A stretch of DNA of 64,000 nucleotides from Heptranchias perlo (Eukaryota). A program made the translations under genes and the position numbers. How positions within the stretch are numbered: the stretch's first letter is position 1; each line of letters begins with the position of its first letter. Below are positions 3,158 to 31,707 of this stretch, piece after piece. Under the pieces are notes generated by a model. It saw only the letters and a program-made list of their open reading frames with translations. It was not told the DNA's origin and searched no databases. The stretch is taken from contig NC_090354.1 of NCBI RefSeq assembly GCF_035084215.1, positions 10,726,001 to 10,790,000 on the forward strand, in the 5' to 3' direction.

Positions 3158-3180
3158 AATTCCAGAGACTGCTGGAAGCT
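3158..3180 (-). promoter_or_regulatory. Distal imperfect heat-shock element of M1 (also present in the other minus copies)
   Basis: TTCcaGAGacTGCtgGAA keeps the 5-bp HSE periodicity with two perfect outer units. Confidence 0.5.
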
Positions 3181-7912: not shown

Positions 7913-8494
7913 ATAATATTCCTCATAATTTTGGACACCACTATTAAATCTCCCTTTAACCGTCTCTGCTCAACAGAGAAAATCCCAGCTTCTCTAGTTT
8001 CTCCACGTAACTGAAGTTCCTGATCCCTGACATCATTCTGCTGAATCTCCTCTACACCCTCTCCAAAGCTTGTAAGAATATGAGAAAAGACAAAGTGGAT
8101 TCAGTAAGATAAAAGGTTCACGGGATTTTTTTCAAAAAAGTTATCTAACAATTGAAAATTTTGTGACCCAAACATCTGGAATTGTAATTGTTTACGTCCC
8201 AGGTACTGCATGGTACACAGCTACATGACTGACTAAGACAATACTTTTGGACACACTGATTGAAGCCTTCACTCTTTTTAAATCACTCTGAACTCTGACA
8301 AGAGCCTGGAGTGGGATTTGGAGATATGCAACTATTTCAATATTTTAAAATTGTACTTCTTAAAATGAAGAAACACCAATTCAGAGATTTGTACTTTATT
8401 ACCACAATATACAAATTAAAATACAATGATTGCATTCATTCACCAGTATACAATTGCTCTGTGATGTACAGCAAAAGTTCATTGCAAAGGAATG

Positions 8495-10112: not shown

Positions 10113-11870
10113 TTAACATCTTTAGGTAGCCATGGAAGGATCATTTTTCCCCTGGAGTTTTCATTTCTCAACAGAATGTATGTTCATTGAGAATTATGAA
10201 ATTTTTCTTTCAATGTTTGCCATTGATTCTCTACAGTTACACCTTTTAATCTAATTTCCCAATCTTCCTTAGCCAACTGGAGGTTTATTCCCTAAATTAG
10301 GTGACAGTCTTGGCGCAGTGCTCGCGCGCTCACCTTAGAACCAGAAGGTGTTGGGTTCAAGACCCAGTCCATAGTCCTGAGCACATTATTTGGGCTGATA
10401 ATTCAGTGTGGGAATGCTGCACTGTAGGGGCTGCCGTCTTTCAGGTGGGAGATTAAACTCAAGTCCCACCTGCTCCCTTGGATGGAAGTAAAAAATCCCA
10501 CGACCCTATTCAGAGTTCTGACAGATTCCTGGGCAACATTTACCCCTCAGCCAAAACCACCAAGAACAGATTATCTGGTCATTTATCACAGTGTGTTTGT
10601 GGGACCTTGCTCTGACAAAATTCGCTGCAGCATTTGGCTACTTTGCAACAATAACTGAATTTCAAAGTAATTAAATATTTATGAAGCACTTTGGGATGAC
10701 CCGAGCACATTAAAGATGCCGTTTCAATGCAAATTCTTTCTTTATAAACAGAAATAATATATTTTTTTAAAAATTAGTTGAAAATAAAGAAGCTGCTACC
10801 AGTTTAGAAAGAAATTACAAAAAAATGTATTTTGATATATTAAATATGCAAATACAGCAAATTAATATAATAAATTACTGGTGTAGAATCATACAGCACA
10901 GAAGGAGGCCATTTGGCCCATCATACCTGTGCCGGCTCTTTGAAAGAGATATCCCACTCCTATGCTCTTTCTCCATAGTCCATTAATTTTTCCCTTATTA
11001 AGTGTGTATCCAATTCCAATTTTGAAATTTTCCATTAAATCTACTTCCACCACCCTTTCACACAGTGCAGTCCAGATCATAACGACAGATAATTACTGGC
11101 TGAGTAATTTTCATTTTCCCTTTGGTTCTTTTGTCAATTATCTTAACTATGTGTCCTTTGGTCAGCAACTGTCCTGCCAATGGAAACAGTTTCTCCTTAT
11201 TTGCTCAATCAATGTCCCTCATAATTTTGGACACCACTATTAAATCTCCCTTTGACCTTCACTGCTGGAAGGAGAACAATCCCAGTTTCTCCAGTCTCTC
11301 CACATAACTGAAGTCTCTCATCCCTGGTATCATACCGGTAAATCTCGTCTAAACCCTCTCCAATGCTTGTAAGAATATGAGAAAAGACAAAGTGGATTCA
11401 GTAATATAAAAGGCTCACGGGGAGTTTTTGTTAAAAACGTTATCCAACAATTGAAAATGTCATGACCGAAACGTCTGGAATTGTAATTGTTTGTGTCCCA
11501 GGTGCTCCACGGTACTCAGCTGCATGACTGACTAAGACATCACATTTGGACACCGGATTGAAACCTTCACTCCTTTTAAATCTCACTGCACTCTGACAAG
11601 AGCCTGGAGTGGAATGTGGAGATCTGCAACTATTTCAATATTTTAAGATTATAATTATTAAAATGAGGAAACACCAATTCAGAGATTTGTACTTTATTAC
11701 CACAATATACAAAGTAAATACACTGCTTGTATTCAAGAAAGGATTTTTCTGACGTACAGAATGAAAAGAATGATTCACATTTTCCGTTTCACACTAGCTT
11801 ACTTCAAGTTCATTTCCACCAGTATACAATTGCTCTGTGATGTACAGCAAAAGTTCATTGCAAACGAATG

Positions 11871-12524
11871 TCAACAGTCCTTATTCATTTCAGACTCTGT
11901 CTTGTTCTCGCCACTCTCCTGTGTCTGTGTTTCTACGCCAGGATTTAGCCGGGGAGTGGTTGTTGTATCAGAGGTGATGTTGATGGGAACGGTTCGTTCA
12001 TTCACAGCTGGCAGTGCCAGGCGTGGGGCTTGAACCTTTAACTGACCGTCCTGTGACAAACAGCAGTTAAGTGCTTGAGGTTCGACATCTTCTGGCAGCT
12101 GAAATTCTCTCCTGAACTCTTCATATTTGTAGCTGTAACAGCCGCTCCCATCATCACTTTTCTTCTCATGTTTTCCTGTCACCAGCACTTTTCTTCCAAG
12201 TACTTTCACCGTCAGTTCTTCTGGGGAGAATTGCTGGACATCCAGGGACAGAGAAAAGTCATCTCCATCCTTGTCCTCGGATTGTCTATTATCTCCTTCA
12301 TTGTCATCAGGTTTGTGGTTCTGATTTCTTGGTCTTTCCTCCCAAAATTCTTTGGCGAGCTCCTCAAGAACTCGATTCAGGAAGTTCATGCTCTTTCTCG
12401 CTTCTTCCACCTGTTGCCACCTGTTGCATTCAAACGGCTCAAAGACTGTGTGTGGAACAGACCACAATGTGTACACAGGCTGCTGGCACAGATGTGAAGC
12501 GTGGAAAGCCCGACAGCTCAGCAT
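11871..12524 (-). CDS. hsp30: hsp30/HSPB9-like copy M3 (tandem unit 1)
   Basis: Intact 217-aa ORF; TATA/HSE at 12619-12658. Confidence 0.92.
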   Translation of the reverse strand: MLSCRAFHASHLCQQPVYTLWSVPHTVFEPFECNRWQQVEEARKSMNFLNRVLEELAKEFWEERPRNQNHKPDDNEGDNRQSEDKDGDDFSLSLDVQQFSPEELTVKVLGRKVLVTGKHEKKSDDGSGCYSYKYEEFRREFQLPEDVEPQALNCCLSQDGQLKVQAPRLALPAVNERTVPINITSDTTTTPRLNPGVETQTQESGENKTESEMNKDC

Positions 12525-13599
12525 TCTCTCTGCCTCTTCTATCACTTCTCTCAAACCAGACTGACGTGAACTCCCAGTCTTCAGTCTCTGATCTGCTGCA
12601 GCACTCAGAACACATGCCTTATATATTCTACTCCCAGAAATCCAGACACTTCCAGAATTTGTTAAACTTTACTGGGTTTATGACACATGAGCAGAAAATA
12701 ACTGACGTCTCATCTCTCCCTTTAAAGAAGAATGACTCGGCTCAGTGACACCCTCTGGTGCAATTCCAGAGACTGCTGGAAGCTGCTGACATTTGACATC
12801 ACAGCTGGGCGGAGCAAATGATCGACAGCCCAGCAGAAGGAAGAGACTGTGGAGTAAAGTTGTGTTTGATCAGAAGTGTTCAACTTCATGAAATCTAAAC
12901 TAACATTTTGAGATAATGAACAGCCAGTCAGTGGCTTTCTAGATCCGCTATTTTCATTCATTTTCAAAAGATTAAAGTGATATTTAGCAACAGCAGAGCA
13001 GAGGGATCGGAAGAGTGAATTTCAGATCAGTTTGATTTAAATTATGTGAAGTTCTGATTCGATCCCATTCAGGTTCATTAGTTGCCTTGTTTTTCTTTCA
13101 TTTGCCACTGTCCGTTTCTATGGTAATGTGTTGCGATCCAGTTTTCCAAGATGATGGAGTGATGGCCTTTACATTCCTAGATTCTGGGGAGATATTCCAC
13201 ATACAGTATTTTGTAGTCAGAAATAAAACAATTCGATAATGTTTAAAAATCTCTCCTCATGATAAATGATGTGTTATTTATAGAAAATTCAGCAAAACAC
13301 TGACTCCAAGACAGACTAATGTTTAACCAGATGTGCGTATGAAGATATTTATTGTCAAGGGGATGCACCACTCAGTGGAGGTCCCCAGCCTGTTGAATTC
13401 CATCTCTCAGACAGCTGTTAAAGCACCTAATTCCCTAGTTTGCCTCTTCCAAGTGTAATTCTTTGTGCTGTGGGTGGGTTTAAATTTGATGCTGTATCTC
13501 TATTCATGTTCACCCCCAACACCCCTCCCCCCACCACCCCTCATTGTCCAATGAATTCAAATTTTCTTTTTCTAAATGAACTTTTGTTCAGAAAGTGAA

Positions 13600-13855
13600 A
13601 ATGAACGAATCATCTCCAGCAACATCATCGCTGATACAACACCCACTCCCGGCCAAATTGTGGGAAAGAGCCACAGAAACAGGGCAGTGGAAAGGATGAG
13701 GGGAACAAGAAAGAGGCTGAAGTAAAAAAGGACATTTAAGACTCATTTACAGTGAACTTTTGGAAGATGAAAAAATAATTGAATATAGAGAGACAGGAGT
13801 TTCTGAGACAATGGTATGAATACTGAAAATTAATTCTCATTTTTATCTTTATCCT
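13600..13855 (+). pseudogene. 3' relic of a plus-type hsp30 in the tandem unit (also at +4482, +8964, +13446)
   Basis: Reads NERIISSNIIADTTPTPRPNCGKEPQKQGSGKDEGNKKEAEVKKDI stop; promoter and alpha-crystallin domain are missing. Confidence 0.85.
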
Positions 13856-14213
13856 TTAGTTAGCCATGGGTGGATCATTTTTCCCCTGGAGTTTTCATTT
13901 CTCAACAGAATGTATTTTCATTGAGAATTATGAAATTTTTCTTTAAATGTTTGCCATTGATTCTCTACTGTTACACCTTTTAATCTAATTTCCCAATCTA
14001 CCTTAGCCAACTGGCCCCTCATACCTATATAATTGGCTTTATTTAAAGTTTAAGACTCTAGTTTCTGACTGAAGTGTGTCACTCTTGAACTTAATGTGAA
14101 ATTCATCATACTATGATCAATCTTCCCCAGAGGATCCCTTACTATGATTAACCATGTCTCATTAAACAAGAAAAGTTCTGAAACTGCCTGATCCCTGATA
14201 GTTTCCTAGAACA
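13856..14213 (-). mobile_element. CR1 ORF2 internal (endonuclease-region) fragment in each tandem unit; shorter piece at ~10120-10280
   Basis: Reverse complement of 14130-14212 resembles CR1 sequence at 63908-64000 in this window. Confidence 0.6.
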
Positions 14214-16352
14214 ATAAGGCATGGAACCAGTCTCGAATGCATCTGCATTTTTAAGTATCAGTAAGGTGTGTAATATTTCTCACAGTGTCAGTCAGCAGTT
14301 TTATTCTTTCAGTAAATTTACTGTATTACAGCAACGGACACACTGTTCAGGTTTAGGCTGCTGGAGGTGGGTGGGAAATATCAGCAACCGTATGGCAGGT
14401 CCCAGACTACACGTGAGCAATGCCACAGGAGATTTAGTAGTAAAATATCAAATGGAGTACAAAATGTAAACTCTGAATACAAACTTAAAGTAAACCTGGA
14501 ATATATTTAACTGTTATGCAACCCAAATACAGCAGGGAATAAAGGTTCAGGTTGCAGTTCATAGGAGACTCGGTGTGTTATGGAAACTGTCATGTAGCCA
14601 TTTACCAAGTTATGGTGTTGGGAGCTTCACATCAACATTAATTATCGGATCATCATTGTTTCTAATGCATTCTGATATTAAATTAGGAACTTAAAAAATT
14701 GCTACATGTTATCAGTAAACCCAATTATATTCAAGCTGCCAGTTTTGTCCAATGTAAAGGAAGTTTATTCCCTAAATTAGGTGGCAGTCTTGGCGCAGTG
14801 CTCACACACTCACCTCAGAACCAGAAGGTGTTGGGTTCAAGACCCAGTCCATAGTCCTGAGCACATTATTTGGGCTGATAATTCAGTGTGGGAATGCTGC
14901 ACTGTAGGAGCTGCCGTCTTTCAGGTGGGAGATTAAACTCAAGTCCCATCTGCTCCCTTGGGTGGAAGTAAAAGATCCCACTGCCCTATTCAGACTTCTG
15001 ACAGATTCCTGGCCAACATTTACCCCTCAGCCAATACCACCAAAAACAGATTATCTGGTCATTTATCACAGTGTGTTTGTGGGACCTTGCTCTGACAAAA
15101 TTCACTGCAGCATTTGGCTACATTGCAACAAGAACTGAATTTCAAAGTAATTAAATATTTATGAAGCACTTTGGGATGACCTGAGCAAATTAAAGATGCT
15201 GTTTCAATGCAAATTCTTTCTTTATAAACAGAAATAATATATTCTTAAAAATAAAATAGTTGAAAATAAAGAAGTTGCTATCAGTTTAGAAAGAAATTAC
15301 AAAAAAATGTATTTTGACATATTAAATATGCAAATACTGCAAATTAATATAATAAATTACTGGTAGAAAATCATACAGCACTGAAGGAGCCCATTCGGCC
15401 CATCATAACTGCGCCGGCTATTTGAAAGAGATATCCCACTCCTCTGCTCTTTCCCCTCAGCCCTGCAATTTCTTCCCAGTTAAGTGTGTATCCAATTCCA
15501 ATTTTGAAATTTTCCATTGAATCTGCTTCCACCATCCTTTCACACAGTGCAGTCCAGATCATAACAACAGATAATTACTGGCTGAGTAATTTTCATTTTC
15601 CCTCTGGTTCTTTTGTCAATTATCTTAACTATGTGTCCTTTGGTTAGCAACTCTCCTGCCAATGGAAACAGTTTCTCCTTATTTACTCAATCAATACCCC
15701 TCATAATTTTGGACACCACTATTAAATCTCCCTTTGACCTTCACTGCTGGAAGGAGAACAATCCCAGTTTCTCCAGTCTCTCCACATAACTGAAGTCTCT
15801 CATCCCTGGTATCATACCGGTAAATCTCGTCTAAACCCTCTCCAATGCTTGTAAGAATATGAGAAAAGACAAAGTGGATTCAGTAATATAAAAGGCTCAC
15901 GGGGAGTTTTTGTTAAAAACGTTATCCAACAATTGAAAATGTCATGACCGAAACGTCTGGAATTGTAATTGTTTGTGTCCCAGGTGCTCCACGGTACTCA
16001 GCTGCATGACTGACTAAGACATCACATTTGGACACCGGATTGAAACCTTCACTCCTTTTAAATCTCACTGCACTCTGACAAGAGCCTGGAGTGGAATGTG
16101 GAGATCTGCAACTATTTCAATATTTTAAGATTATAATTATTAAAATGAGGAAACACCAATTCAGAGATTTGTACTTTATTACCACAATATACAAAGTAAA
16201 TACACTGCTTGTATTCAAGAAAGGATTTTTCTGACGTACAGAATGAAAAGAATGATTCACATTTTCCGTTTCACACTAGCTTACTTCAAGTTCATTTCCA
16301 CCAGTATACAATTGCTCTGTGATGTACAGCAAAAGTTCATTGCAAACGAATG

Positions 16353-17006
16353 TCAACAGTCCTTATTCATTTCAGACTCTGTCTTGTTCTCGCCACTCTC
16401 CTGTGTCTGTGTTTCTACGCCAGGATTTAGCCGGGGAGTGGTTGTTGTATCAGAGGTGATGTTGATGGGAACGGTTCGTTCATTCACAGCTGGCAGTGCC
16501 AGGCGTGGGGCTTGAACCTTTAACTGACCGTCCTGTGACAAACAGCAGTTAAGTGCTTGAGGTTCGACATCTTCTGGCAGCTGAAATTCTCTCCTGAACT
16601 CTTCATATTTGTAGCTGTAACAGCCGCTCCCATCATCACTTTTCTTCTCATGTTTTCCTGTCACCAGCACTTTTCTTCCAAGTACTTTCACCGTCAGTTC
16701 TTCTGGGGAGAATTGCTGGACATCCAGGGACAGAGAAAAGTCATCTCCATCCTTGTCCTCGGATTGTCTATTATCTCCTTCATTGTCATCAGGTTTGTGG
16801 TTCTGATTTCTTGGTCTTTCCTCCCAAAATTCTTTGGCGAGCTCCTCAAGAACTCGATTCAGGAAGTTCATGCTCTTTCTCGCTTCTTCCACCTGTTGCC
16901 ACCTGTTGCATTCAAACGGCTCAAAGACTGTGTGTGGAACAGACCACAATGTGTACACAGGCTGCTGGCACAGATGTGAAGCGTGGAAAGCCCGACAGCT
17001 CAGCAT
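16353..17006 (-). CDS. hsp30: hsp30/HSPB9-like copy M4 (tandem unit 2)
   Basis: Protein identical to M3; TATA/HSE at 17101-17140. Confidence 0.92.
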   Translation of the reverse strand: MLSCRAFHASHLCQQPVYTLWSVPHTVFEPFECNRWQQVEEARKSMNFLNRVLEELAKEFWEERPRNQNHKPDDNEGDNRQSEDKDGDDFSLSLDVQQFSPEELTVKVLGRKVLVTGKHEKKSDDGSGCYSYKYEEFRREFQLPEDVEPQALNCCLSQDGQLKVQAPRLALPAVNERTVPINITSDTTTTPRLNPGVETQTQESGENKTESEMNKDC

Positions 17007-20000
17007 TCTCTCTGCCTCTTCTATCACTTCTCTCAAACCAGACTGACGTGAACTCCCAGTCTTCAGTCTCTGATCTGCTGCAGCACTCAGAACACATGCC
17101 TTATATATTCTACTCCCAGAAATCCAGACACTTCCAGAATTTGTTAAACTTTACTGGGTTTATGACACATGAGCAGAAAATAACTGACGTCTCATCTCTC
17201 CCTTTAAAGAAGAATGACTCGGCTCAGTGACACCCTTTGGTGCAATTCCAGAGACTGCTGGAAGCTGCTGACATTTGACATCACAGCTGGGCGGAGCAAA
17301 TGATCGACAGCCCAGCAGAAGGAAGAGACTGTGGAGTAAAGTTGTGTTTGATCAGAAGTGTTCAACTTCATGAAATCTAAACTAACATTTTGAGATAATG
17401 AACAGCCAGTCAGTGGCTTTCTAGATCTGCTATTTTCATTCATTTTCAAAAGATTAAAGTGATATTTAGCAACAGCAGAGCAGAGGGATCGGAAGAGTGA
17501 ATTTCAGATCAGTTTGATTTAAATTATGTGAAGTTCTGATTCGATCCCATTCAGGTTCATTAGTTGCCTTGTTTTTCTTTCATTTGCCACTGTCCGTTTC
17601 TATGGTAATGTGTTGCGATCCAGTTTTCCAAGATGATGGAGTGATGGCCTTTACATTCCTAGATTCTGGGGAGATATTCCACGTACAGTATTTTGTAGTC
17701 AGAAATAAAACAATTCGATAATGTTTAAAAATCTCTCCTCATGATAAATGATGTGTTATTTATAGAAAATTCAGCAAAACACTGACTCCAAGACAGACTA
17801 ATGTTTAACCAGATGTGCGTATGAAGATATTTATTGTCAAGGGGATGCACCACTCAGTGGAGGTCCCCAGCCTGTTGAATTCCATCTCTCAGACAGCTGT
17901 TAAAGCACCTAATTCCCTAGTTTGCCTCTTCCAAGTGTAATTCTTTGTGCTGTGGGTGGGTTTAAATTTGATGCTGTATCTCTATTCATGTTCACCCCCA
18001 ACACCCCTCCCCCCACCACCCCTCATTGTCCAATGAATTCAAATTTTCTTTTTCTAAATGAACTTTTGTTCAGAAAGTGAAAATGAACGAATCATCTCCA
18101 GCAACATCATCGCTGATACAACACCCACTCCCGGCCAAATTGTGGGAAAGAGCCACAGAAACAGGGCAGTGGAAAGGATGAGGGGAACAAGAAAGAGGCT
18201 GAAGTAAAAAAGGACATTTAAGACTCATTTACAGTGAACTTTTGGAAGATGAAAAAATAATTGAATATAGAGAGACAGGAGTTTCTGAGACAATGGTATG
18301 AATACTGAAAATTAATTCTCATTTTTATCTTTATCCTTTAGTTAGCCATGGGTGGATCATTTTTCCCCTGGAGTTTTCATTTCTCAACAGAATGTATTTT
18401 CATTGAGAATTATGAAATTTTTCTTTAAATGTTTGCCATTGATTCTCTACTGTTACACCTTTTAATCTAATTTCCCAATCTACCTTAGCCAACTGGCCCC
18501 TCATACCTATATAATTGGCTTTATTTAAAGTTTAAGACTCTAGTTTCTGACTGAAGTGTGTCACTCTTGAACTTAATGTGAAATTCATCATACTATGATC
18601 AATCTTCCCCAGAGGATCCCTTACTATGATTAACCATGTCTCATTAAACAAGAAAAGTTCTGAAACTGCCTGATCCCTGATAGTTTCCTAGAACAATAAG
18701 GCATGGAACCAGTCTCGAATGCATCTGCATTTTTAAGTATCAGTAAGGTGTGTAATATTTCTCACAGTGTCAGTCAGCAGTTTTATTCTTTCAGTAAATT
18801 TACTGTATTACAGCAACGGACACACTGTTCAGGTTTAGGCTGCTGGAGGTGGGTGGGAAATATCAGCAACCGTATGGCAGGTCCCAGACTACACGTGAGC
18901 AATGCCACAGGAGATTTAGTAGTAAAATATCAAATGGAGTACAAAATGTAAACTCTGAATACAAACTTAAAGTAAACCTGGAATATATTTAACTGTTATG
19001 CAACCCAAATACAGCAGGGAATAAAGGTTCAGGTTGCAGTTCATAGGAGACTCGGTGTGTTATGGAAACTGTCATGTAGCCATTTACCAAGTTATGGTGT
19101 TGGGAGCTTCACATCAACATTAATTATCGGATCATCATTGTTTCTAATGCATTCTGATATTAAATTAGGAACTTAAAAAATTGCTACATGTTATCAGTAA
19201 ACCCAATTATATTCAAGCTGCCAGTTTTGTCCAATGTAAAGGAAGTTTATTCCCTAAATTAGGTGGCAGTCTTGGCGCAGTGCTCACACACTCACCTCAG
19301 AACCAGAAGGTGTTGGGTTCAAGACCCAGTCCATAGTCCTGAGCACATTATTTGGGCTGATAATTCAGTGTGGGAATGCTGCACTGTAGGAGCTGCCGTC
19401 TTTCAGGTGGGAGATTAAACTCAAGTCCCATCTGCTCCCTTGGGTGGAAGTAAAAGATCCCACTGCCCTATTCAGACTTCTGACAGATTCCTGGCCAACA
19501 TTTACCCCTCAGCCAATACCACCAAAAACAGATTATCTGGTCATTTATCACAGTGTGTTTGTGGGACCTTGCTCTGACAAAATTCACTGCAGCATTTGGC
19601 TACATTGCAACAAGAACTGAATTTCAAAGTAATTAAATATTTATGAAGCACTTTGGGATGACCTGAGCAAATTAAAGATGCTGTTTCAATGCAAATTCTT
19701 TCTTTATAAACAGAAATAATATATTCTTAAAAATAAAATAGTTGAAAATAAAGAAGTTGCTATCAGTTTAGAAAGAAATTACAAAAAAATGTATTTTGAC
19801 ATATTAAATATGCAAATACTGCAAATTAATATAATAAATTACTGGTAGAAAATCATACAGCACTGAAGGAGCCCATTCAGCCCATCATAACTGCGCCGGC
19901 TATTTGAAAGAGATATCCCACTCCTCTGCTCTTTCCCCTCAGCCCTGCAATTTCTTCCCAGTTAAGTGTGTATCCAATTCCAATTTTGAAATTTTCCATT

Positions 20001-20834
20001 GAATCTGCTTCCACCATCCTTTCACACAGTGCAGTCCAGATCATAACAACAGATAATTACTGGCTGAGTAATTTTCATTTTCCCTCTGGTTCTTTTGTCA
20101 ATTATCTTAACTATGTGTCCTTTGGTTAGCAACTCTCCTGCCAATGGAAACAGTTTCTCCTTATTTACTCAATCAATACCCCTCATAATTTTGGACACCA
20201 CTATTAAATCTCCCTTTGACCTTCACTGCTGGAAGGAGAACAATCCCAGTTTCTCCAGTCTCTCCACATAACTGAAGTCTCTCATCCCTGGTATCATACC
20301 GGTAAATCTCGTCTAAACCCTCTCCAATGCTTGTAAGAATATGAGAAAAGACAAAGTGGATTCAGTAATATAAAAGGCTCACGGGGAGTTTTTGTTAAAA
20401 ACGTTATCCAACAATTGAAAATGTCATGACCGAAACGTCTGGAATTGTAATTGTTTGTGTCCCAGGTGCTCCACGGTACTCAGCTGCATGACTGACTAAG
20501 ACATCACATTTGGACACCGGATTGAAACCTTCACTCCTTTTAAATCTCACTGCACTCTGACAAGAGCCTGGAGTGGAATGTGGAGATCTGCAACTATTTC
20601 AATATTTTAAGATTATAATTATTAAAATGAGGAAACACCAATTCAGAGATTTGTACTTTATTACCACAATATACAAAGTAAATACACTGCTTGTATTCAA
20701 GAAAGGATTTTTCTGACGTACAGAATGAAAAGAATGATTCACATTTTCCGTTTCACACTAGCTTACTTCGAGTTCATTTCCACCAGTATACAATTGCTCT
20801 GTGATGTACAGCAAAAGTTCATTGCAAACGAATG

Positions 20835-21488
20835 TCAACAGTCCTTATTCATTTCAGACTCTGTCTTGTTCTCGCCACTCTCCTGTGTCTGTGTTTCTAC
20901 GCCAGGATTTAGCCGGGGAGTGGTTGTTGTATCAGAGGTGATGTTGATGGGAACGGTTCGTTCATTCACAGCTGGCAGTGCCAGGCGTGGGGCTTGAACC
21001 TTTAACTGACCGTCCTGTGACAAACAGCAGTTAAGTGCTTGAGGTTCGACATCTTCTGGCAGCTGAAATTCTCTCCTGAACTCTTCATATTTGTAGCTGT
21101 AACAGCCGCTCCCATCATCACTTTTCTTCTCATGTTTTCCTGTCACCAGCACTTTTCTTCCAAGTACTTTCACCGTCAGTTCTTCTGGGGAGAATTGCTG
21201 GACATCCAGGGACAGAGAAAAGTCATCTCCATCCTTGTCCTCGGATTGTCTATTATCTCCTTCATTGTCATCAGGTTTGTGGTTCTGATTTCTTGGTCTT
21301 TCCTCCCAAAATTCTTTGGCGAGCTCCTCAAGAACTCGATTCAGGAAGTTCATGCTCTTTCTCGCTTCTTCCACCTGTTGCCACCTGTTGCATTCAAACG
21401 GCTCAAAGACTGTGTGTGGAACAGACCACAATGTGTGCACAGGCTGCTGGCACAGATGTGAAGCGTGGAAAGCCCGACAGCTCAGCAT
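20835..21488 (-). CDS. hsp30: hsp30/HSPB9-like copy M5 (tandem unit 3)
   Basis: Differs from M3 by Y>H (PVHTL); TATA/HSE at 21583-21622. Confidence 0.92.
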   Translation of the reverse strand: MLSCRAFHASHLCQQPVHTLWSVPHTVFEPFECNRWQQVEEARKSMNFLNRVLEELAKEFWEERPRNQNHKPDDNEGDNRQSEDKDGDDFSLSLDVQQFSPEELTVKVLGRKVLVTGKHEKKSDDGSGCYSYKYEEFRREFQLPEDVEPQALNCCLSQDGQLKVQAPRLALPAVNERTVPINITSDTTTTPRLNPGVETQTQESGENKTESEMNKDC

Positions 21489-24400
21489 TCTCTCTGCCTC
21501 TTCTATCACTTCTCTCAAACCAGACTGACGTGAACTCCCAGTCTTCAGTCTCTGATCTGCTGCAGCACTCAGAACACATGCCTTATATATTCTACTCCCA
21601 GAAATCCAGACACTTCCAGAATTTGTTAAACTTTACTGGGTTTATGACACATGAGCAGAAAATAACTGACGTCTCATCTCTCCCTTTAAAGAAGAATGAC
21701 TCGGCTCAGTGACACCCTCTGGTGCAATTCCAGAGACTGCTGGAAGCTGCTGACATTTGACATCACAGCTGGGCGGAGCAAATGATCGACAGCCCAGCAG
21801 AAGGAAGAGACTGTGGAGTAAAGTTGTGTTTGATCAGAAGTGTTCAACTTCATGAAATCTAAACTAACATTTTGAGATAATGAACAGCCAGTCAGTGGCT
21901 TTCTAGATCCGCTATTTTCATTCATTTTCAAAAGATTAAAGTGATATTTAGCAACAGCAGAGCAGAGGGATCGGAAGAGTGAATTTCAGATCAGTTTGAT
22001 TTAAATTATGTGAAGTTCTGATTCGATCCCATTCAGGTTCATTAGTTGCCTTGTTTTTCTTTCATTTGCCACTGTCCGTTTCTATGGTAATGTGTTGCGA
22101 TCCAGTTTTCCAAGATGATGGAGTGATGGCCTTTACATTCCTAGATTCTGGGGAGATATTCCACGTACAGTATTTTGTAGTCAGAAATAAAACAATTCGA
22201 TAATGTTTAAAAATCTCTCCTCATGATAAATGATGTGTTATTTATAGAAAATTCAGCAAAACACTGACTCCAAGACAGACTAATGTTTAACCAGATGTGC
22301 GTATGAAGATATTTATTGTCAAGGGGATGCACCACTCAGTGGAGGTCCCCAGCCTGTTGAATTCCATCTCTCAGACAGCTGTTAAAGCACCTAATTCCCT
22401 AGTTTGCCTCTTCCAAGTGTAATTCTTTGTGCTGTGGGTGGGTTTAAATTTGATGCTGTATCTCTATTCATGTTCACCCCCAACACCCCTCCCCCCACCA
22501 CCCCTCATTGTCCAATGAATTCAAATTTTCTTTTTCTAAATGAACTTTTGTTCAGAAAGTGAAAATGAACGAATCATCTCCAGCAACATCATCGCTGATA
22601 CAACACCCACTCCCGGCCAAATTGTGGGAAAGAGCCACAGAAACAGGGCAGTGGAAAGGATGAGGGGAACAAGAAAGAGGCTGAAGTAAAAAAGGACATT
22701 TAAGACTCATTTACAGTGAACTTTTGGAAGATGAAAAAATAATTGAATATAGAGAGACAGGAGTTTCTGAGACAATGGTATGAATACTGAAAATTAATTC
22801 TCATTTTTATCTTTATCCTTTAGTTAGCCATGGGTGGATCATTTTTCCCCTGGAGTTTTCATTTCTCAACAGAATGTATTTTCATTGAGAATTATGAAAT
22901 TTTTCTTTAAATGTTTGCCATTGATTCTCTACTGTTACACCTTTTAATCTAATTTCCCAATCTACCTTAGCCAACTGGCCCCTCATACCTATATAATTGG
23001 CTTTATTTAAAGTTTAAGACTCTAGTTTCTGACTGAAGTGTGTCACTCTTGAACTTAATGTGAAATTCATCATACTATGATCAATCTTCCCCAGAGGATC
23101 CCTTACTATGATTAACCATGTCTCATTAAACAAGAAAAGTTCTGAAACTGCCTGATCCCTGATAGTTTCCTAGAACAATAAGGCATGGAACCAGTCTCGA
23201 ATGCATCTGCATTTTTAAGTATCAGTAAGGTGTGTAATATTTCTCACAGTGTCAGTCAGCAGTTTTATTCTTTCAGTAAATTTACTGTATTACAGCAACG
23301 GACACACTGTTCAGGTTTAGGCTGCTGGAGGTGGGTGGGAAATATCAGCAACCGTATGGCAGGTCCCAGACTACACGTGAGCAATGCCACAGGAGATTTA
23401 GTAGTAAAATATCAAATGGAGTACAAAATGTAAACTCTGAATACAAACTTAAAGTAAACCTGGAATATATTTAACTGTTATGCAACCCAAATACAGCAGG
23501 GAATAAAGGTTCAGGTTGCAGTTCATAGGAGACTCGGTGTGTTATGGAAACTGTCATGTAGCCATTTACCAAGTTATGGTGTTGGGAGCTTCACATCAAC
23601 ATTAATTATCGGATCATCATTGTTTCTAATGCATTCTGATATTAAATTAGGAACTTAAAAAATTGCTACATGTTATCAGTAAACCCAATTATATTCAAGC
23701 TGCCAGTTTTGTCCAATGTAAAGGAAGTTTATTCCCTAAATTAGGTGGCAGTCTTGGCGCAGTGCTCACACACTCACCTCAGAACCAGAAGGTGTTGGGT
23801 TCAAGACCCAGTCCATAGTCCTGAGCACATTATTTGGGCTGATAATTCAGTGTGGGAATGCTGCACTGTAGGAGCTGCCGTCTTTCAGGTGGGAGATTAA
23901 ACTCAAGTCCCATCTGCTCCCTTGGGTGGAAGTAAAAGATCCCACTGCCCTATTCAGACTTCTGACAGATTCCTGGCCAACATTTACCCCTCAGCCAATA
24001 CCACCAAAAACAGATTATCTGGTCATTTATCACAGTGTGTTTGTGGGACCTTGCTCTGACAAAATTCACTGCAGCATTTGGCTACATTGCAACAAGAACT
24101 GAATTTCAAAGTAATTAAATATTTATGAAGCACTTTGGGATGACCTGAGCAAATTAAAGATGCTGTTTCAATGCAAATTCTTTCTTTATAAACAGAAATA
24201 ATATATTCTTAAAAATAAAATAGTTGAAAATAAAGAAGTTGCTATCAGTTTAGAAAGAAATTACAAAAAAATGTATTTTGACATATTAAATATGCAAATA
24301 CTGCAAATTAATATAATAAATTACTGGTAGAAAATCATACAGCACTGAAGGAGCCCATTCGGCCCATCATAACTGCGCCGGCTATTTGAAAGAGATATCC

Positions 24401-25316
24401 CACTCCTCTGCTCTTTCCCCTCAGCCCTGCAATTTCTTCCCAGTTAAGTGTGTATCCAATTCCAATTTTGAAATTTTCCATTGAATCTGCTTCCACCATC
24501 CTTTCACACAGTGCAGTCCAGATCATAACAACAGATAATTACTGGCTGAGTAATTTTCATTTTCCCTCTGGTTCTTTTGTCAATTATCTTAACTATGTGT
24601 CCTTTGGTTAGCAACTCTCCTGCCAATGGAAACAGTTTCTCCTTATTTACTCAATCAATACCCCTCATAATTTTGGACACCACTATTAAATCTCCCTTTG
24701 ACCTTCACTGCTGGAAGGAGAACAATCCCAGTTTCTCCAGTCTCTCCACATAACTGAAGTCTCTCATCCCTGGTATCATACCGGTAAATCTCGTCTAAAC
24801 CCTCTCCAATGCTTGTAAGAATATGAGAAAAGACAAAGTGGATTCAGTAATATAAAAGGCTCACGGGGAGTTTTTGTTAAAAACGTTATCCAACAATTGA
24901 AAATGTCATGACCGAAACGTCTGGAATTGTAATTGTTTGTGTCCCAGGTGCTCCACGGTACTCAGCTGCATGACTGACTAAGACATCACATTTGGACACC
25001 GGATTGAAACCTTCACTCCTTTTAAATCTCACTGCACTCTGACAAGAGCCTGGAGTGGAATGTGGAGATCTGCAACTATTTCAATATTTTAAGATTATAA
25101 TTATTAAAATGAGGAAACACCAATTCAGAGATTTGTACTTTATTACCACAATATACAAAGTAAATACACTGCTTGTATTCAAGAAAGGATTTTTCTGACG
25201 TACAGAATGAAAAGAATGATTCACATTTTCCGTTTCACACTAGCTTACTTCGAGTTCATTTCCACCAGTATACAATTGCTCTGTGATGTACAGCAAAAGT
25301 TCATTGCAAACGAATG

Positions 25317-25970
25317 TCAACAGTCCTTATTCATTTCAGACTCTGTCTTGTTCTCGCCACTCTCCTGTGTCTGTGTTTCTACGCCAGGATTTAGCCGGGG
25401 AGTGGTTGTTGTATCAGAGGTGATGTTGATGGGAACGATTCGTTCATTCACAGCTGGCAGTGCCAGGCGTGGGGCTTGAACCTTTAACTGACCGTCCTGT
25501 GACAAACAGCAGTTAAGTGCTTGAGGTTCGACATCTTCTGGCAGCTGAAATTCTCTCCTGAACTCTTCATATTTGTAGCTGTAACAGCCGCTCCCATCAT
25601 CACTTTTCTTCTCATGTTTTCCTGTCACCAGCACTTTTCTTCCAAGTACTTTCACCGTCAGTTCTTCTGGGGAGAATTGCTGGACATCCAGGGACAGAGA
25701 AAAGTCATCTCCATCCTTGTCCTCGGATTGTCTATTATCTCCTTCATTGTCATCAGGTTTGTGGTTCTGATTTCTTGGTCTTTCCTCCCAAAATTCTTTG
25801 GCGAGCTCCTCAAGAACTCGATTCAGGAAGTTCATGCTCTTTCTCGCTTCTTCCACCTGTTGCCACCTGTTGCATTCAAACGGCTCAAAGACTGTGTGTG
25901 GAACAGACCACAATGTGTGCACAGGCTGCTGGCACAGATGTGAAGCGTGGAAAGCCCGACAGCTCAGCAT
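25317..25970 (-). CDS. hsp30: hsp30/HSPB9-like copy M6 (tandem unit 4)
   Basis: Differs from M3 by Y>H and T>I (ERIVPI); TATA/HSE at 26065-26104. Confidence 0.92.
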   Translation of the reverse strand: MLSCRAFHASHLCQQPVHTLWSVPHTVFEPFECNRWQQVEEARKSMNFLNRVLEELAKEFWEERPRNQNHKPDDNEGDNRQSEDKDGDDFSLSLDVQQFSPEELTVKVLGRKVLVTGKHEKKSDDGSGCYSYKYEEFRREFQLPEDVEPQALNCCLSQDGQLKVQAPRLALPAVNERIVPINITSDTTTTPRLNPGVETQTQESGENKTESEMNKDC

Positions 25971-28900
25971 TCTCTCTGCCTCTTCTATCACTTCTCTCAA
26001 ACCAGACTGACGTGAACTCCCAGTCTTCAGTCTCTGATCTGCTGCAGCACTCAGAACACATGCCTTATATATTCTACTCCCAGAAATCCAGACACTTCCA
26101 GAATTTGTTAAACTTTACTGGGTTTATGACACATGAGCAGAAAATAACTGACGTCTCATCTCTCCCTTTAAAGAAGAATGACTCGGCTCAGTGACACCCT
26201 CTGGTGCAATTCCAGAGACTGCTGGAAGCTGCTGACATTTGACATCACAGCTGGGCGGAGCAAATGATCGACAGCCCAGCAGAAGGAAGAGACTGTGGAG
26301 TAAAGTTGTGTTTGATCAGAAGTGTTCAACTTCATGAAATCTAAACTAACATTTTGAGATAATGAACAGCCAGTCAGTGGCTTTCTAGATCTGCTATTTT
26401 CATTCATTTTCAAAAGATTAAAGTGATATTTAGCAACAGCAGAGCAGAGGGATCGGAAGAGTGAATTTCAGATCAGTTTGATTTAAATTATGTGAAGTTC
26501 TGATTCGATCCCATTCAGGTTCATTAGTTGCCTTGTTTTTCTTTCATTTGCCACTGTCCGTTTCTATGGTAATGTGTTGCGATCCAGTTTTCCAAGATGA
26601 TGGAGTGATGGCCTTTACATTCCTAGATTCTGGGGAGATATTCCACGTACAGTATTTTGTAGTCAGAAATAAAACAATTCGATAATGTTTAAAAATCTCT
26701 CCTCATGATAAATGATGTGTTATTTATAGAAAATTCAGCAAAACACTGACTCCAAGACAGACTAATGTTTAACCAGATGTGCGTATGAAGATATTTATTG
26801 TCAAGGGGATGCACCACTCAGTGGAGGTCCCCAGCCTGTTGAATTCCATCTCTCAGACAGCTGTTAAAGCACCTAATTCCCTAGTTTGCCTCTTCCAAGT
26901 GTAATTCTTTGTGCTGTGGGTGGGTTTAAATTTGATGCTGTATCTCTATTCATGTTCACCCCCAACACCCCTCCCCCCACCACCCCTCATTGTCCAATGA
27001 ATTCAAATTTTCTTTTTCTAAATGAACTTTTGTTCAGAAAGTGAAAATGAACGAATCATCTCCAGCAACATCATCGCTGATACAACACCCACTCCCGGCC
27101 AAATTGTGGGAAAGAGCCACAGAAACAGGGCAGTGGAAAGGATGAGGGGAACAAGAAAGAGGCTGAAGTAAAAAAGGACATTTAAGACTCATTTACAGTG
27201 AACTTTTGGAAGATGAAAAAATAATTGAATATAGAGAGACAGGAGTTTCTGAGACAATGGTATGAATACTGAAAATTAATTCTCATTTTTATCTTTATCC
27301 TTTAGTTAGCCATGGGTGGATCATTTTTCCCCTGGAGTTTTCATTTCTCAACAGAATGTATTTTCATTGAGAATTATGAAATTTTTCTTTAAATGTTTGC
27401 CATTGATTCTCTACTGTTACACCTTTTAATCTAATTTCCCAATCTACCTTAGCCAACTGGCCCCTCATACCTATATAATTGGCTTTATTTAAAGTTTAAG
27501 ACTCTAGTTTCTGACTGAAGTGTGTCACTCTTGAACTTAATGTGAAATTCATCATACTATGATCAATCTTCCCCAGAGGATCCCTTACTATGATTAACCA
27601 TGTCTCATTAAACAAGAAAAGTTCTGAAACTGCCTGATCCCTGATAGTTTCCTAGAACAATAAGGCATGGAACCAGTCTCGAATGCATCTGCATTTTTAA
27701 GTATCAGTAAGGTGTGTAATATTTCTCACAGTGTCAGTCAGCAGTTTTATTCTTTCAGTAAATTTACTGTATTACAGCAACGGACACACTGTTCAGGTTT
27801 AGGCTGCTGGAGGTGGGTGGGAAATATCAGCAACCGTATGGCAGGTCCCAGACTACACGTGAGCAATGCCACAGGAGATTTAGTAGTAAAATATCAAATG
27901 GAGTACAAAATGTAAACTCTGAATACAAACTTAAAGTAAACCTGGAATATATTTAACTGTTATGCAACCCAAATACAGCAGGGAATAAAGGTTCAGGTTG
28001 CAGTTCATAGGAGACTCGGTGTGTTATGGAAACTGTCATGTAGCCATTTACCAAGTTATGGTGTTGGGAGCTTCACATCAACATTAATTATCGGATCATC
28101 ATTGTTTCTAATGCATTCTGATATTAAATTAGGAACTTAAAAAATTGCTACATGTTATCAGTAAACCCAATTATATTCAAGCTGCCAGTTTTGTCCAATG
28201 TAAAGGAAGTTTATTCCCTAAATTAGGTGGCAGTCTTGGCGCAGTGCTCACACACTCACCTCAGAACCAGAAGGTGTTGGGTTCAAGACCCAGTCCATAG
28301 TCCTGAGCACATTATTTGGGCTGATAATTCAGTGTGGGAATGCTGCACTGTAGGAGCTGCCGTCTTTCAGGTGGGAGATTAAACTCAAGTCCCATCTGCT
28401 CCCTTGGGTGGAAGTAAAAGATCCCACTGCCCTATTCAGACTTCTGACAGATTCCTGGCCAACATTTACCCCTCAGCCAATACCACCAAAAACAGATTAT
28501 CTGGTCATTTATCACAGTGTGTTTGTGGGACCTTGCTCTGACAAAATTCACTGCAGCATTTGGCTACATTGCAACAAGAACTGAATTTCAAAGTAATTAA
28601 ATATTTATGAAGCACTTTGGGATGACCTGAGCAAATTAAAGATGCTGTTTCAATGCAAATTCTTTCTTTATAAACAGAAATAATATATTCTTAAAAATAA
28701 AATAGTTGAAAATAAAGAAGTTGCTATCAGTTTAGAAAGAAATTACAAAAAAATGTATTTTGACATATTAAATATGCAAATACTGCAAATTAATATAATA
28801 AATTACTGGTAGAAAATCATACAGCACTGAAGGAGCCCATTCGGCCCATCATAACTGCGCCGGCTATTTGAAAGAGATATCCCACTCCTCTGCTCTTTCC

Positions 28901-29786
28901 CCACAGCCCTGCAATTTCTTCCCAGTTAAGTGTGTATCCAATTCCAATTTTGAAATTTTCCATTGAATCTGCTTCCACCATCCTTTCACACAGTGCAGTC
29001 CAGATCATAACAACAGATAATTACTGGCTGAGTAATTTTCATTTTCCCTCTGGTTCTTTTGTCAATTATCTTAACTATGTGTCCTTTGGTTAGCAACTCT
29101 CCTGCCAATGGAAACAGTTTCTCCTTATTTACTCAATCAATACCCCTCATAATTTTGGCACCACTATTAAATCTCCCTTTAACCTTCTCTGCTGGAAGGA
29201 GAACAATCCCAGCTTCTCCAGTCTCTCCACATAACTGAACTCTCTCATCCCTGGTATCATACCGGTAAATCTCATCTTAACCCTCTCCAAGGCTTGTAAG
29301 TATACGAGAAAAGACAAAGTGGATTCAGTAATATAAAAGGCTCACGGGGAGCTTTTGTTAAAAAAAGTTATCCAACAATTGAAAATTTCATGACGAAACG
29401 TCTGGAATTGTAATTGTTTGTGTCCCAGGTGCTCCACGGTACTCAGCTGCATGACTGACTAAGACATCACATTTGGACACCTGATTGAAACCTTCACTCC
29501 TTTTAAATCTCACTGCACTCTGAGAAGAGCCTGGAGTGGAATGTGGAGATATGCAACTATTTCAATATTTTAAGATTATAATTATTAAAATGAGGAAACA
29601 CCAATTCAGAGATTTGTATTTTATTACCACAATATACAAATTAAAATACAAAGAAAATATTTTTCAGATGTGCAGAATGGAAAAAATGTTTCACTATCTC
29701 AGTTTCACACAAATTTACTTCAAGTTCATTTCCACCAGTGTACAATTGCTCTGTGATGTACAGCAAAAGTTCATTGCAAACAAATG

Positions 29787-30440
29787 TCAACAGTCCTTAT
29801 TCATTTCAGACTCTGTCTCGTTCTCGCCACTCTCCTGTGTCTGTGCTTCTACGCCAGGATTTAGCCGGGGAGTGGTTGTTGTATCAGAGGTGATGTTGAT
29901 GGGAACGGTTCGTTCATTCACAGCTGGCAGTGCCAGGCGTGGGGCTTGAACCTTTGACTGACTGTCCTGTGACAAACAGCAGTTAAGTGCTTGAGGTTTG
30001 ACATCTTCTGGCAGCTGAAATTCTCTCCTGAACTCTTCATATTTGTAGCTGTAACAGCCGCCCCCATCATCACTTTTCTTCTCATGTTTTCCTGTCACCA
30101 GCACTTTTCTTCCAAGTACTTTCACCTTCAGTTCTTCCGGGGAGAATTGCTGGACATCCAGGGACAGAGAAAAGTCATCTCCATCCTTGTCCTCGGATTG
30201 TCTATTATCTCCTTCATTGTCATCAGGTTTGTTGTCCTGATTTCTTGGACTTTCCTCCCAAAATTCTTTGGCGAGCTCCTCAAGAACTCGATTCAGGAAG
30301 TTCATGCTCTTTCTCGCTTCTTCCACCTGTTGCCACCTGTTGCATTCAAACGGCTCAAAGACTGTGTGTGGAACAGGCCACAATGTGTACACAGGCTGCT
30401 GGCACAGACGTGAAGGGTGGAAAGCCCGACAGCTCAGCAT
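29787..30440 (-). CDS. hsp30: hsp30/HSPB9-like copy M7
   Basis: Open 217-aa frame, but DSQSKV replaces DG(Q/R)LKV; TATA/HSE at 30535-30574. Confidence 0.85.
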   Translation of the reverse strand: MLSCRAFHPSRLCQQPVYTLWPVPHTVFEPFECNRWQQVEEARKSMNFLNRVLEELAKEFWEESPRNQDNKPDDNEGDNRQSEDKDGDDFSLSLDVQQFSPEELKVKVLGRKVLVTGKHEKKSDDGGGCYSYKYEEFRREFQLPEDVKPQALNCCLSQDSQSKVQAPRLALPAVNERTVPINITSDTTTTPRLNPGVEAQTQESGENETESEMNKDC

Positions 30441-31707
30441 TGTCTCTGCCGCTTCTATTACTTCTCTCAAACCCGACTGATGTGAACTCCCAGTCTTCAG
30501 TCTCTGATCTGCTGCAGCACTCAGAACACATGCCTTATATATTCTACTCCCAGAAATCCAGACACTTCCAGCATTTGCTAAACTTTACTGGGTTTATGAC
30601 ACGAGAGCAGAAAATAACGGACGTCTCATCTCTGCCTTGCTTGAAAGAAGAATGACTCGGCTCAGTGACACCCTCTGGTGCAATTCCAGAGACTGCTGGA
30701 AGCTGCTGACATTTGACATCACAGCTGGGCAGAGCAAATGATTGACAGCCCAGCAGAAGGAAGAGACTGTGGAGTAAAGTTGTGTTTGATCAGAAGTGTT
30801 CAACTTAATGAAATCCAAACTAACATTTTGAGACAATGAACAGCCAGTCAGTGTTTTTCCTGTTCCACTATTTTCATACATTTTCAAAAGATTAAAGTGA
30901 TATTTAGCAACAGCAGAGTAGAGGGATCGAAAGAGTGAATTTCAGATCAATTTGATTTAAATTATGTGAAATTCTGATTCTATCCCGTACAGGTTCATTA
31001 GTTGCCTATTTTTTTGTTTCATTTACCACCGTGTGTTGCTATGGTAATGTGTTGCTATCCAGTTTTCCAAGATGATGGAGTGATGGCCTTTGCATTCCTC
31101 CATTTTGGAGGAGATAGTCCACGTACAGTATTTTGTAATCAGAAATAAAACAGTTTGATATTGCTTAAGAATCTCTCCTGATGATAAATGTGATATTTGT
31201 CGAAAATTCAGCTGAACACTGACTTCAAGAGAAACTAAAGTTTAATGCACCGCTCAGTGGAAGTCCCCAGCCTGCTGAATTCCATCGCTCAGAAATTGTT
31301 AGTGCATCTCATTCCCTGGTTTTCCTCTTCCAAGTGTAATTCTTTGTGCTGTGGCTGGTTTTAAATTTGATGCCATATTTCAATTAACGTTACGTTCCCC
31401 CCACTCCAAAGTGTTCAATTTTTTTTCTAAATTAGCTTTTGTGCGAAAAGTGAAGATATATGACGATTCCCTCGTTACTCGGTTTTCTGGAATGCAAAAC
31501 AAATTCTCTTTTTCTTGGACAAATTTCCAAAAAGATCTGGTGTCGAGGACAATAGAGAACTCCATGCCCAAATCACGTCCCGTTTACGTCAGTATCTTTA
31601 TCTCCCAATGAAAAATCAGAGAGTGAGAATTTTGCTGAGCCATTGTAACAAACTGAAAATTTAACAAAAAAGAGCCTCTGTTCCGATTATAGCAAATAAA
31701 TTCATCT

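Follow-up and report, generated by a model that had tools for sequence, protein, structure and literature searches.

Tandem array of four hsp30 cassettes in Heptranchias perlo and its probable growth by unequal crossover

The window, a stretch of 64,000 nucleotides from contig NC_090354.1 of Heptranchias perlo, contains a tandem array of four nearly identical units, each with an hsp30 gene. Positions are those of the window, and strands are given where assigned.

11216..29158: tandem array, four 4,482-bp units and a terminal 15-bp window (lag matching, unit comparison)
11216..15697: unit 1
15698..20179: unit 2
20180..24661: unit 3, start like unit 4 and end like units 1-2 (probable recombinant)
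24662..29143: unit 4, ancestral A retained at offset 4242

At lag 4482 a matching run extends from 11216 to 24676 with just 12 mismatches, and no long matching run occurs in the array at lags 4481 and 4483. Eight of the 4,482 columns vary among the units (3-6 per pair, 0.07-0.13% pairwise). These are seven transitions and one transversion, and there are no indels. The identity of the units and the period are far above chance. Thus the fourfold amplification claimed in a preliminary description stands, with an exact period. The words "very recent" hold as percent divergence. However, on the shark clock this may mean hundreds of thousands to millions of generations, as 0.1% divergence could correspond to up to about 0.4-3.6 million of them.

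11871..12524, minus strand: intact single-ORF hsp30/HSPB11-like gene of unit 1, 217 aa (ORF, PF00011, relatives)
16353..17006, minus strand: hsp30 gene of unit 2, CDS identical to unit 1
20835..21488, minus strand: hsp30 gene of unit 3 (Y18H)
25317..25970, minus strand: hsp30 gene of unit 4 (Y18H, T178I)
12620..12658, minus strand: TATATA box at -101 and degenerate heat-shock-element-like pentamers near -133, in each unit
11693..11698, minus strand: AATAAA, candidate poly(A) signal

Judged by its sequence, the predicted product of the array gene is a small heat-shock protein of the HSP30/HSPB11-like type. Residues 85-182 match the alpha-crystallin (HSP20) domain PF00011 (72 bits against a cut-off of 20.8, E 4.6e-20). 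There are 77 protein matches, from sharks, rays, lungfish, frogs, birds and turtles, and the named ones are nearly all hsp30, 30C or beta-11-like. The domain and the nearest named relatives ("heat shock protein 30C-like" or "beta-11-like") agree with the earlier naming of the gene. Residues S22, H70 and T105 are found in the array only among the 16 distinct proteins compared. A candidate heat-shock element at -133 matches the consensus motif with one mismatch in all four units. The junction between units lies about 460 bp beyond the candidate poly(A) signal, outside the transcription unit. Thus the gene is not chimeric, and formation of a chimeric or novel gene is ruled out.

In two runs that are RNA by guess (X5 and X6) depth is very high over 11781-12530 and falls to zero in several intergenic bins. 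In X5 a contig shows, at 11806, the letter of units 3 and 4. At 12211 and 12461 some depth persists for the letters of the array, no more than a hint of presence.

10279..11215: left parental homology flanking the array, ~94% identical to the end of the unit
29159..31391: right parental homology flanking the array, ~94% identical to the start of the unit; paralogous gene at 29787-30440
382..3985: older paralogous cassette P, used as outgroup; 15-mer at 1619-1633, gene at 2263-2916
11216..11230, plus strand: crossover window, left parental copy J0
15698..15712, plus strand: crossover window, chimeric junction J1 (identical at 20180-20194 and 24662-24676)
29144..29158, plus strand: crossover window, right parental copy J4

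The paralogous sequences at the two array ends have the same orientation and are in register. The left and right cassettes are 94.0% identical over 3,361 columns, including 122 gap columns, and their homology runs past both array ends. Locally the identity is 95-95.5% in the 400 bp round the crossover window and 98% in the gene.

The diagnostic sites switch in the sequence CCCTCATAATTTTGG. This 15-mer occurs at 11216, 15698, 20180, 24662 and 29144, as described earlier, and a sixth copy, absent from that description, lies at 1619-1633 in the older paralogous cassette. Before it J0 reads CAATGT and the other four junctions CAATAC. After it J4 is one A short and reads TTTAACCTTCTC. Across the 3.3-kb homology the first internal junction agrees with the right cassette upstream at 56/56 diagnostic sites and with the left cassette downstream at 219/220, the single exception sitting in a block with the unit-variable site 13201. 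No patchwork of markers adjoining the switch was seen at the diagnostic sites of this junction. In the alignment the sequence passes from paralog to paralog without inserted or lost bases, and the same switch is common to all three internal junctions. These counts bear out the earlier report of chimeric junctions, right-flank-like upstream and left-flank-like downstream.

Two private differences set the 15-bp limit, a 2-bp change in J0 and a 1-bp deletion in J4; the paralog at 1619 has AC before the crossover window and keeps the A after it. If either private change post-dates the crossover or was polymorphic, the crossover window widens to the next markers, 11204-11253 (50 bp). The cassettes share 194 perfect-match tracts (longest 127 bp, length-weighted median 31 bp), and at 94% identity 29% of random points in the homology lie in tracts of at most 15 bp. 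Thus the 15-bp resolution is ordinary and reflects marker density, and the tract was rejected as a special site.

10883..11372, minus strand: 5'-truncated CR1-type fragment holding J0, ends approximate (comparison, contig starts, flanks)
~15365-15854, ~19847-20336, ~24329-24818, ~28811-29299: equivalents of this CR1-type fragment
7307..7914, minus strand: nested second CR1 in a different cassette, inside its host CR1 fragment, ends approximate

The minus-strand translation of the CR1 fragment presumably resembles CR1 ORF2. A Pfam search with a 51-aa stop-free piece gave no match, and the Atlas comparison of the CR1 piece gave unnamed clusters only. Many contigs start at the fragment edge (10881-10883), with very high summed depth. 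The insertion flank is the same at the 5'-truncated end in 6/6 copies compared and at the 3' end in 4/4. As both flanks are common to every cassette examined, the fragments descend from one old insertion that was duplicated along with the gene. The homology reaches 0.6 kb to the left and about 2 kb to the right of CR1, which makes up about 0.5 kb of the 3.3 kb. The common flanks and the homology beyond CR1 rule out a dispersed LINE-LINE rearrangement between two independent insertions. Thus the switch does fall inside paralogous CR1 fragments, as the preliminary description had it, but the substrate is the pair of hsp30 cassettes, 94% identical over 3.3 kb, in which CR1 was co-duplicated.

The position of the nested CR1 is equivalent to ~15693-15696, beside the crossover window. 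The 3' terminal octamer of the CR1 clade, ATTCTRTG (PMC2612034), is exact in the nested element at ~7310 and decayed in the five host copies examined. The host CR1 and the nested element are about 70% identical over 489 bp. Hence one could imagine that the crossover window is a repeatedly cut CR1 spot, where CR1 endonuclease nicks may have started both the exchange and the nested insertion and may still drive hsp30 gain, with a segregating dosage allele in a very slowly mutating shark; we regard this as highly improbable. The nested element did insert, in a sister cassette, within ~2-5 bp of the crossover window. However, the chance of such a coincidence is 7-10%, given 9-14 old breakpoints, and it was spotted post hoc. 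An exchange site need not equal the break site, and large hsp30 sets also occur in sharks and rays of shallow water.

The variable sites by offset, with the letters of units 1-4 in order, are as follows.

591 AAGG; 777 GGGA; 1258 AAGG; 1540 CTCC
1731 CTCT; 1986 AGGG; 4182 GAGG; 4242 TTTA

Outgroups carry A at 591 (3/3 aligned), 1258 (4/4) and 4242 (3/3). Unit 3 combines the derived G591 and G1258 of unit 4 with the derived T4242 of units 1-2. Given the outgroup letters, it can be read as a recombinant with the polarity expected of gain by unequal exchange. The tree (12|34) requires 9 parsimony steps, the doubling tree (13|24) 10 and (14|23) 11; this history is based on eight sites, and the best tree is ahead by one step. 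Simple doubling of a dimer has one site for it and two against and was rejected. The site that favours it, 1731 (CTCT), is a CpG; without doubling, its pattern calls for conversion of unit 2 or a recurrent change there. An outside paralog, P0004, has H18 too, so that G1258 could stem from conversion instead of a new mutation. Of the earlier proposal that one crossover made a dimer that then expanded, the single founding exchange and the later growth are retained, but stepwise gain with a recombinant unit 3 fits better than doubling.

Copy number was assessed from Logan contigs of the one sample in which the array sequence is present, using its DNA runs X1 and X3. The four array contigs have depth 47-56 in X1 and 76-87 in X3, whereas a contig specific to the single paralog at 8421 has 20.8 in X3. 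Array depth is thus 3.5-4.2 times the apparent single-copy level in these short-read contigs of one sample, which argues against an assembly artefact. Contig depth is not itself copy number, and the baseline consists of one paralog-specific contig with 11 (X1) and 10 (X3) unrelated entries. The medians of the latter, 8.0 (X1) and 12.4 (X3), fall below the paralog-specific baseline, and further paralogs beyond the window could raise the depth of the array contigs. A591 and G1258 are each at 1.9-2.2 fold, matching two of the four units. A point against is that, among the variable sites inside the contig-covered stretch, only 2/6 are listed in both states, a count to be read knowing that contigs drop variants; the 2:2 site 12946 is not among the two. 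In this one sample the depth fits about eight units in a diploid (range ~7-8.4), and there is no sign of a one-unit allele in contig depth. This suggests about four units on both chromosomes, and the array may be common or fixed rather than segregating. The earlier inference that hsp30 dosage is probably copy-number variable among individuals finds no support in these data from one sample. Every k-mer of up to 39 nucleotides across the internal junctions is present in J0, J4 or the 1619 paralog as well, and thus these contigs cannot prove the chimeric junction. The preliminary description had named two observations that would count against it, fewer than four units and diagnostic sites that do not switch at the crossover window; contig depth and the marker switch indicate neither.

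In our judgement the four units are most likely genuine tandem copies of an intact hsp30 cassette, produced by a single non-allelic crossover between 94%-identical neighbours and then by unequal exchange adding one unit at a time. In the ancestral allele a single unit would have stood between cassette A (10279-13602) and cassette B (28205-31480). Pairing one period out of register, followed by exchange within the CR1 portion of the homology, would give a dimer whose junction has B upstream and A downstream. Mispairing of the near-identical units could then produce unit 3, with the start of a later unit and the end of an earlier one, and then unit 2. The expected intermediates at offsets 591/1258/4242 are a dimer AAT-GGA and a trimer AAT-GGT-GGA. 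The effect would be to add three copies of one paralog and so to raise the number of hsp30 genes by about a fifth, with no new protein architecture.

Taken alone, the junction fits unequal crossover, circle excision with reinsertion and break-induced replication alike. Recombination between A and B on one chromatid could release a 4,482-bp circle that reinserts or rolls, or a broken fork could restart on the paralog; several units would be gained at once and their variants shuffled later. By geometry a pop-out circle would bear the same B-upstream/A-downstream junction, and all three internal junctions are indeed identical. However, one-step gain predicts identical units or a star, instead of the shared derived sites and the apparent recombinant, and we consider this route unlikely. 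Less probable still is over-expansion of the assembly, with fewer units per chromosome (e.g. 2+2 or 3+1), haplotypes stacked and a mis-join inside a unit mimicking unequal crossover. The array depth is four times 13.4/20.8, and were that level haploid, four copies in total would fit equally, as would the 2:2 markers; moreover, no listed contig spans the stretch, and the sample may be the assembly's own. On the other hand, 2+2 needs a diploid level of ~27 (X1) and ~42 (X3), whereas 0/11 and 0/10 entries exceed 14.4 and 20.7, respectively (one X1 unrelated entry comprises two contigs and was split evenly). The four units are all distinct, and their seven transitions, one transversion and lack of indels differ from the error profile of long reads. 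Even so, at least a dimer must be real.

The last possibility, that no copy was gained recently and gene conversion made four old cassettes alike, seems barely credible. Conversion-like sharing does exist among the cassettes: paralog P sides with cassette B at 17/24 sites in 10901-11215 and with cassette A at 36/44 sites in 12901-13300. However, four 4.5-kb units without an indel contrast with 122 gap columns of 3,361 between the older cassettes, and the two array ends, separated by exactly four periods, share one crossover window.

The crossover favoured here resembles human LINE and HERV NAHR in having direct repeats in register, a switch between two diagnostic sites and a tandem duplication. 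Human windows are 8-162 bp for HERV-HERV crossovers (PMC4195946) and about 80 bp for LINE-LINE NAHR (PMC4344489). The differences are that the shark substrate is a 3.3-kb gene cassette at 94% with CR1 co-duplicated, and that there are four units, not two. PMC4344489 also gives an identity floor of 96% for LINE-LINE NAHR, and 96-97% or more for LINE pairs and LCRs; the shark pair, at 94.0% overall, falls below. As this threshold is a human rule of thumb, the shortfall lowers only the match to the classical NAHR case.

The encoded protein agrees with other vertebrate HSP30 (Xenopus hsp30C/D, fish hsp30/hspb11, chicken HSP25; PMC5101479) in its alpha-crystallin domain and single ORF of about 217 aa. 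Xenopus hsp30 is multi-copy, with eight variants, and is the most pressure-induced there, according to 10.64898/2026.07.06.736787. Unlike these systems, the shark has at least 17 hsp30 genes on the chromosome (the cluster left of the window being counted from protein records only) and a four-copy block at 99.9%. Three broken copies (pseudogenes, fragments) lie in the window. In a quick tree other elasmobranchs have lineage-specific hsp30 clades, with near-zero branches in Hemitrygon. Since hsp30 expansion is general across elasmobranchs, adaptation to deep-water pressure is unsupported. A literature search found no paper on elasmobranch hsp30 clusters.

Tandem gene arrays, such as the hsp70 clusters of Drosophila and other organisms and the opsins OPN1LW/MW, evolve by birth and death or in concert. 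As in those arrays, a young identical block lies amid older diverged copies, pseudogenes and lineage-specific clades. There is no difference in kind; only the founding crossover is still readable here, to 15-50 bp. The amplification is real and well mapped but ordinary, one birth in a gene cluster that evolves by birth and death. Its mechanism holds no surprise for a specialist and its importance is modest, yet it illustrates cleanly how a cluster of stress genes grows: the founding crossover, the likely order of later gains and the markers for a PCR or long-read test can all be read. The array also draws attention to large hsp30 clusters, specific to their lineages, in sharks and rays, for which we found no description in the literature. 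If the number of units varies between animals, the array would be a ready dosage marker, although three of at least 17 copies amount to about a fifth in gene number.

The window holds a small heat-shock gene cluster with nine intact ORFs of 217 aa. Both of the ORFs that were scanned (2 of 9) contain the HSP20/alpha-crystallin domain, and named relatives are annotated as "heat shock protein 30C-like" or "beta-11-like". A further eight distinct hsp30 proteins labelled Heptranchias perlo are assigned to the same chromosome, which therefore bears at least 17 intact copies; since the window starts inside cassette-type sequence, we infer that the further copies are adjacent to this cluster. At 12823, 13061 and 13135, DNA contigs covering 12751-13170 have the letters of the older paralogous cassette P (382-3985) and not those of the array, which suggests several additional P-type cassettes outside the window. 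The window also contains broken copies.

Broken hsp30 copies in the window
9657-9704, 3' fragment of hsp30
34655-35221 (~34.6-35.2 kb), plus strand, pseudogene with in-frame stops
41696-42306 (~41.7-42.3 kb), plus strand, pseudogene with in-frame stops and frameshifts

Both pseudogenes are inverted relative to the array genes, as is the intact plus-strand gene at 4540-5193. Immediately left of the array, an orphan hsp30 3' end with its 3' UTR (9517-9705, 95% identity to 11737-11922) is fused to spacer. The cluster is interrupted by a broken LINE reverse transcriptase (RVT_1, 31858-33666). An ORF of 300 aa at 37915-38817, which encodes a zf-RVT domain, derives from another LINE. A tandem repeat at 43346-43663 (33 bp, 9.6 copies) is free of stops on both strands over 130-160 codons; its ORFs have no Pfam match.

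Self-comparison gives a period of exactly 4,482 over 11216-29158. The four units have no indels and vary in 8 of 4,482 columns, with 3-6 differences per pair (mean 0.10%). Every unit carries one whole hsp30 gene on the minus strand, preceded by a TATATA box (-101) and by a degenerate motif resembling a heat-shock element (-133); AATAAA occurs at the position matching 11693. Two of the eight variants change the protein, Y18H (units 3-4) and T178I (unit 4). The first heat-shock-element-like triplet is TGC instead of TTC in the right-flank gene (30440-30600) and in the 36.5-kb gene (37162-37320); the amplified gene retains TTCTGGAA at this motif.

Homology runs on past both array ends, where the older parental cassettes A (left, 10279-13602) and B (right, 28205-31480) are 94.0% identical over 3,361 columns, 122 of them with gaps. 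The internal junction has the B letter at all 56 upstream diagnostic sites and the A letter at 219 of 220 downstream ones, with no conversion patch across these sites. On the B side the last marker is the AC of 15696-15697, and on the A side the first is A at 15713; these bound the 15-mer already named as the switch interval. However, the paralog at 1619 has both the AC and the A, and each bounding marker is private to one flank; thus a cautious interval is 11204-11253. An interval of 15 bp is unremarkable, as perfect tracts of at most 15 bp hold 29% of random points in the A/B homology (weighted median 31). Human HERV crossovers are mapped to 8-162 bp (PMC4195946), and human LINE-LINE crossovers to 80 +/- 53 bp with a stated minimum identity of 96% (PMC4344489), compared to 15 bp and 94.0% here.

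The crossover window sits in a minus-strand fragment of ~0.5 kb, present genome-wide at very high copy number. Its translation resembles the end of CR1 ORF2. The fragment shares ~70% identity with a nearby element that terminates in ATTCTRTG, the CR1 octamer (PMC2612034). Since neither Pfam nor Atlas gave it a name, the assignment to CR1 is likely rather than proven. Among the copies printed, the flank is shared at the truncated end in 6 of 6 and at the 3' end in 4 of 4. The copies are a single insertion that travelled with earlier duplications. Thus the exchange did fall inside paralogous CR1 fragments, as proposed, but as cassette-to-cassette recombination resolved in CR1 by chance, and not as recombination between dispersed elements.

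The cassette at 5881-8438 has a further CR1 (7307-7914) nested in its copy of this host fragment. An AATA/AACA pair, apparently a target duplication, lies at the equivalent of ~15693-15696, adjoining the crossover window; the edge of the nested CR1 is within ~2-5 bp of the equivalent of that crossover window. Three bases at this edge vary among paralogs (ACC, GTC, ATT). Given 9-14 old breakpoints, a rough count from the cassette map, the chance of such proximity is 7-10%; that CR1 endonuclease nicks this spot repeatedly and started both events is a reading of low probability. A 33-bp stretch at 35872-35904 matches 7846-7878 of the nested CR1 exactly and abuts the host CR1, with nothing between them, at unit offset ~43; this 35.9-kb cassette seems to have arisen by deletion from the one with the nested insertion.

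Among the ten sequencing runs listed, four DNA runs of one sample contain 77-78% of the query words. Two DNA runs (X1, X3) and two presumed RNA runs (X5, X6), all of this sample, were compared against 10281-14758. Four array contigs have depths of 47-56 (X1) and 76-87 (X3). Relative to a contig that represents only the 8421 paralog (20.8 in X3; 13.4 in X1, scaled from X3), this is 3.5-4.2-fold; each of the 364 31-mers of 14025-14418 has exactly four occurrences in the window. The depth ratios of A591 and G1258 are each 1.9-2.2. Stacking of 2+2 units would require ~27 (X1) and 42 (X3), and no unrelated contig comes near (maxima 14.4 among 11 entries and 20.7 among 10). These depths argue against an assembly artefact and support about four units per chromosome in this sample within limits, as contig depth is not copy number, the medians of unrelated contigs (8.0, 12.4) fall below the baseline, and paralogs outside the window may add depth. 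Only two of six variable sites in 10281-14758 are seen in both states. The array is longer than any contig, none can show the junction, and the assembly itself may come from this sample.

By unit offset, the variants in units 1-4 are 591 AAGG, 777 GGGA, 1258 AAGG, 1540 CTCC, 1731 CTCT, 1986 AGGG, 4182 GAGG and 4242 TTTA. Doubling of a dimer predicts that units 1 and 3, and 2 and 4, are the same; one site, a CpG, agrees and two oppose, and the tree (12|34) costs 9 steps against 10 for (13|24) and 11 for the third. The outgroup has A at 591, 1258 and 4242. So polarised, unit 3 joins the derived start of unit 4 to the derived end of units 1-2, the product expected from gain by unequal exchange. 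These few sites are read as stepwise growth, in which unequal exchange would have raised the unit number 1 -> 2 -> 3 -> 4. However, unit 2 must then have changed again at site 1731, H18 is found also in the outside paralog P0004, and an assembly mis-join would look the same. Gain by unequal exchange fits these sites better than doubling of a dimer.

At the epaulette shark rate of 7e-10 per site per generation (95% CI 1.4-14.1e-10; PMC10587355), borrowed from another order, 0.10% divergence corresponds to ~0.7 million generations (0.36-3.6 million). The figure is a maximum, since standing allelic differences (pi in epaulette shark is 0.002) can be brought in by unequal exchange. The array could thus be young, or its age could run to millions of generations, and "very recent" suits the low divergence better than the time. 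The one sample seems to have the array on each of its two chromosomes with identical 2:2 markers, consistent with a common or fixed allele; copy-number variation among individuals is plausible a priori for such a substrate.

Mammals lack the HSP30 subfamily according to PMC5101479, which describes it in frogs, fish and birds. Our literature search, with subscription journals mostly beyond its scope, turned up no publication on hsp30 clusters in sharks; the main text of a preprint on tandem clusters in two rays lacks "hsp" and "heat shock", and its supplementary figure and table may list them (10.1101/2025.06.08.657570). A quick tree of 65 of 163 proteins left out partial forms, most tetrapod rows and members of cluster listings (Cetorhinus, Scyliorhinus etc.). 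In it, 14 of 16 Heptranchias-contig rows group together (support 91; 13 of them, 95), and carpet sharks (11 rows, support 100) and rays (16 rows, support 99) group apart. Six Hemitrygon copies are on end branches of 0-0.015. A block of near-identical proteins in the ray Hemitrygon akajei (P0041-P0048) is likely an independent young amplification. Cluster listings contain many copies each in Cetorhinus, Scyliorhinus, Hemiscyllium, Chiloscyllium, Pristiophorus and Heterodontus. Young hsp30 amplification is therefore recurrent in elasmobranchs. The amplification in H. perlo is real and was accurately described, and its mechanism is ordinary.
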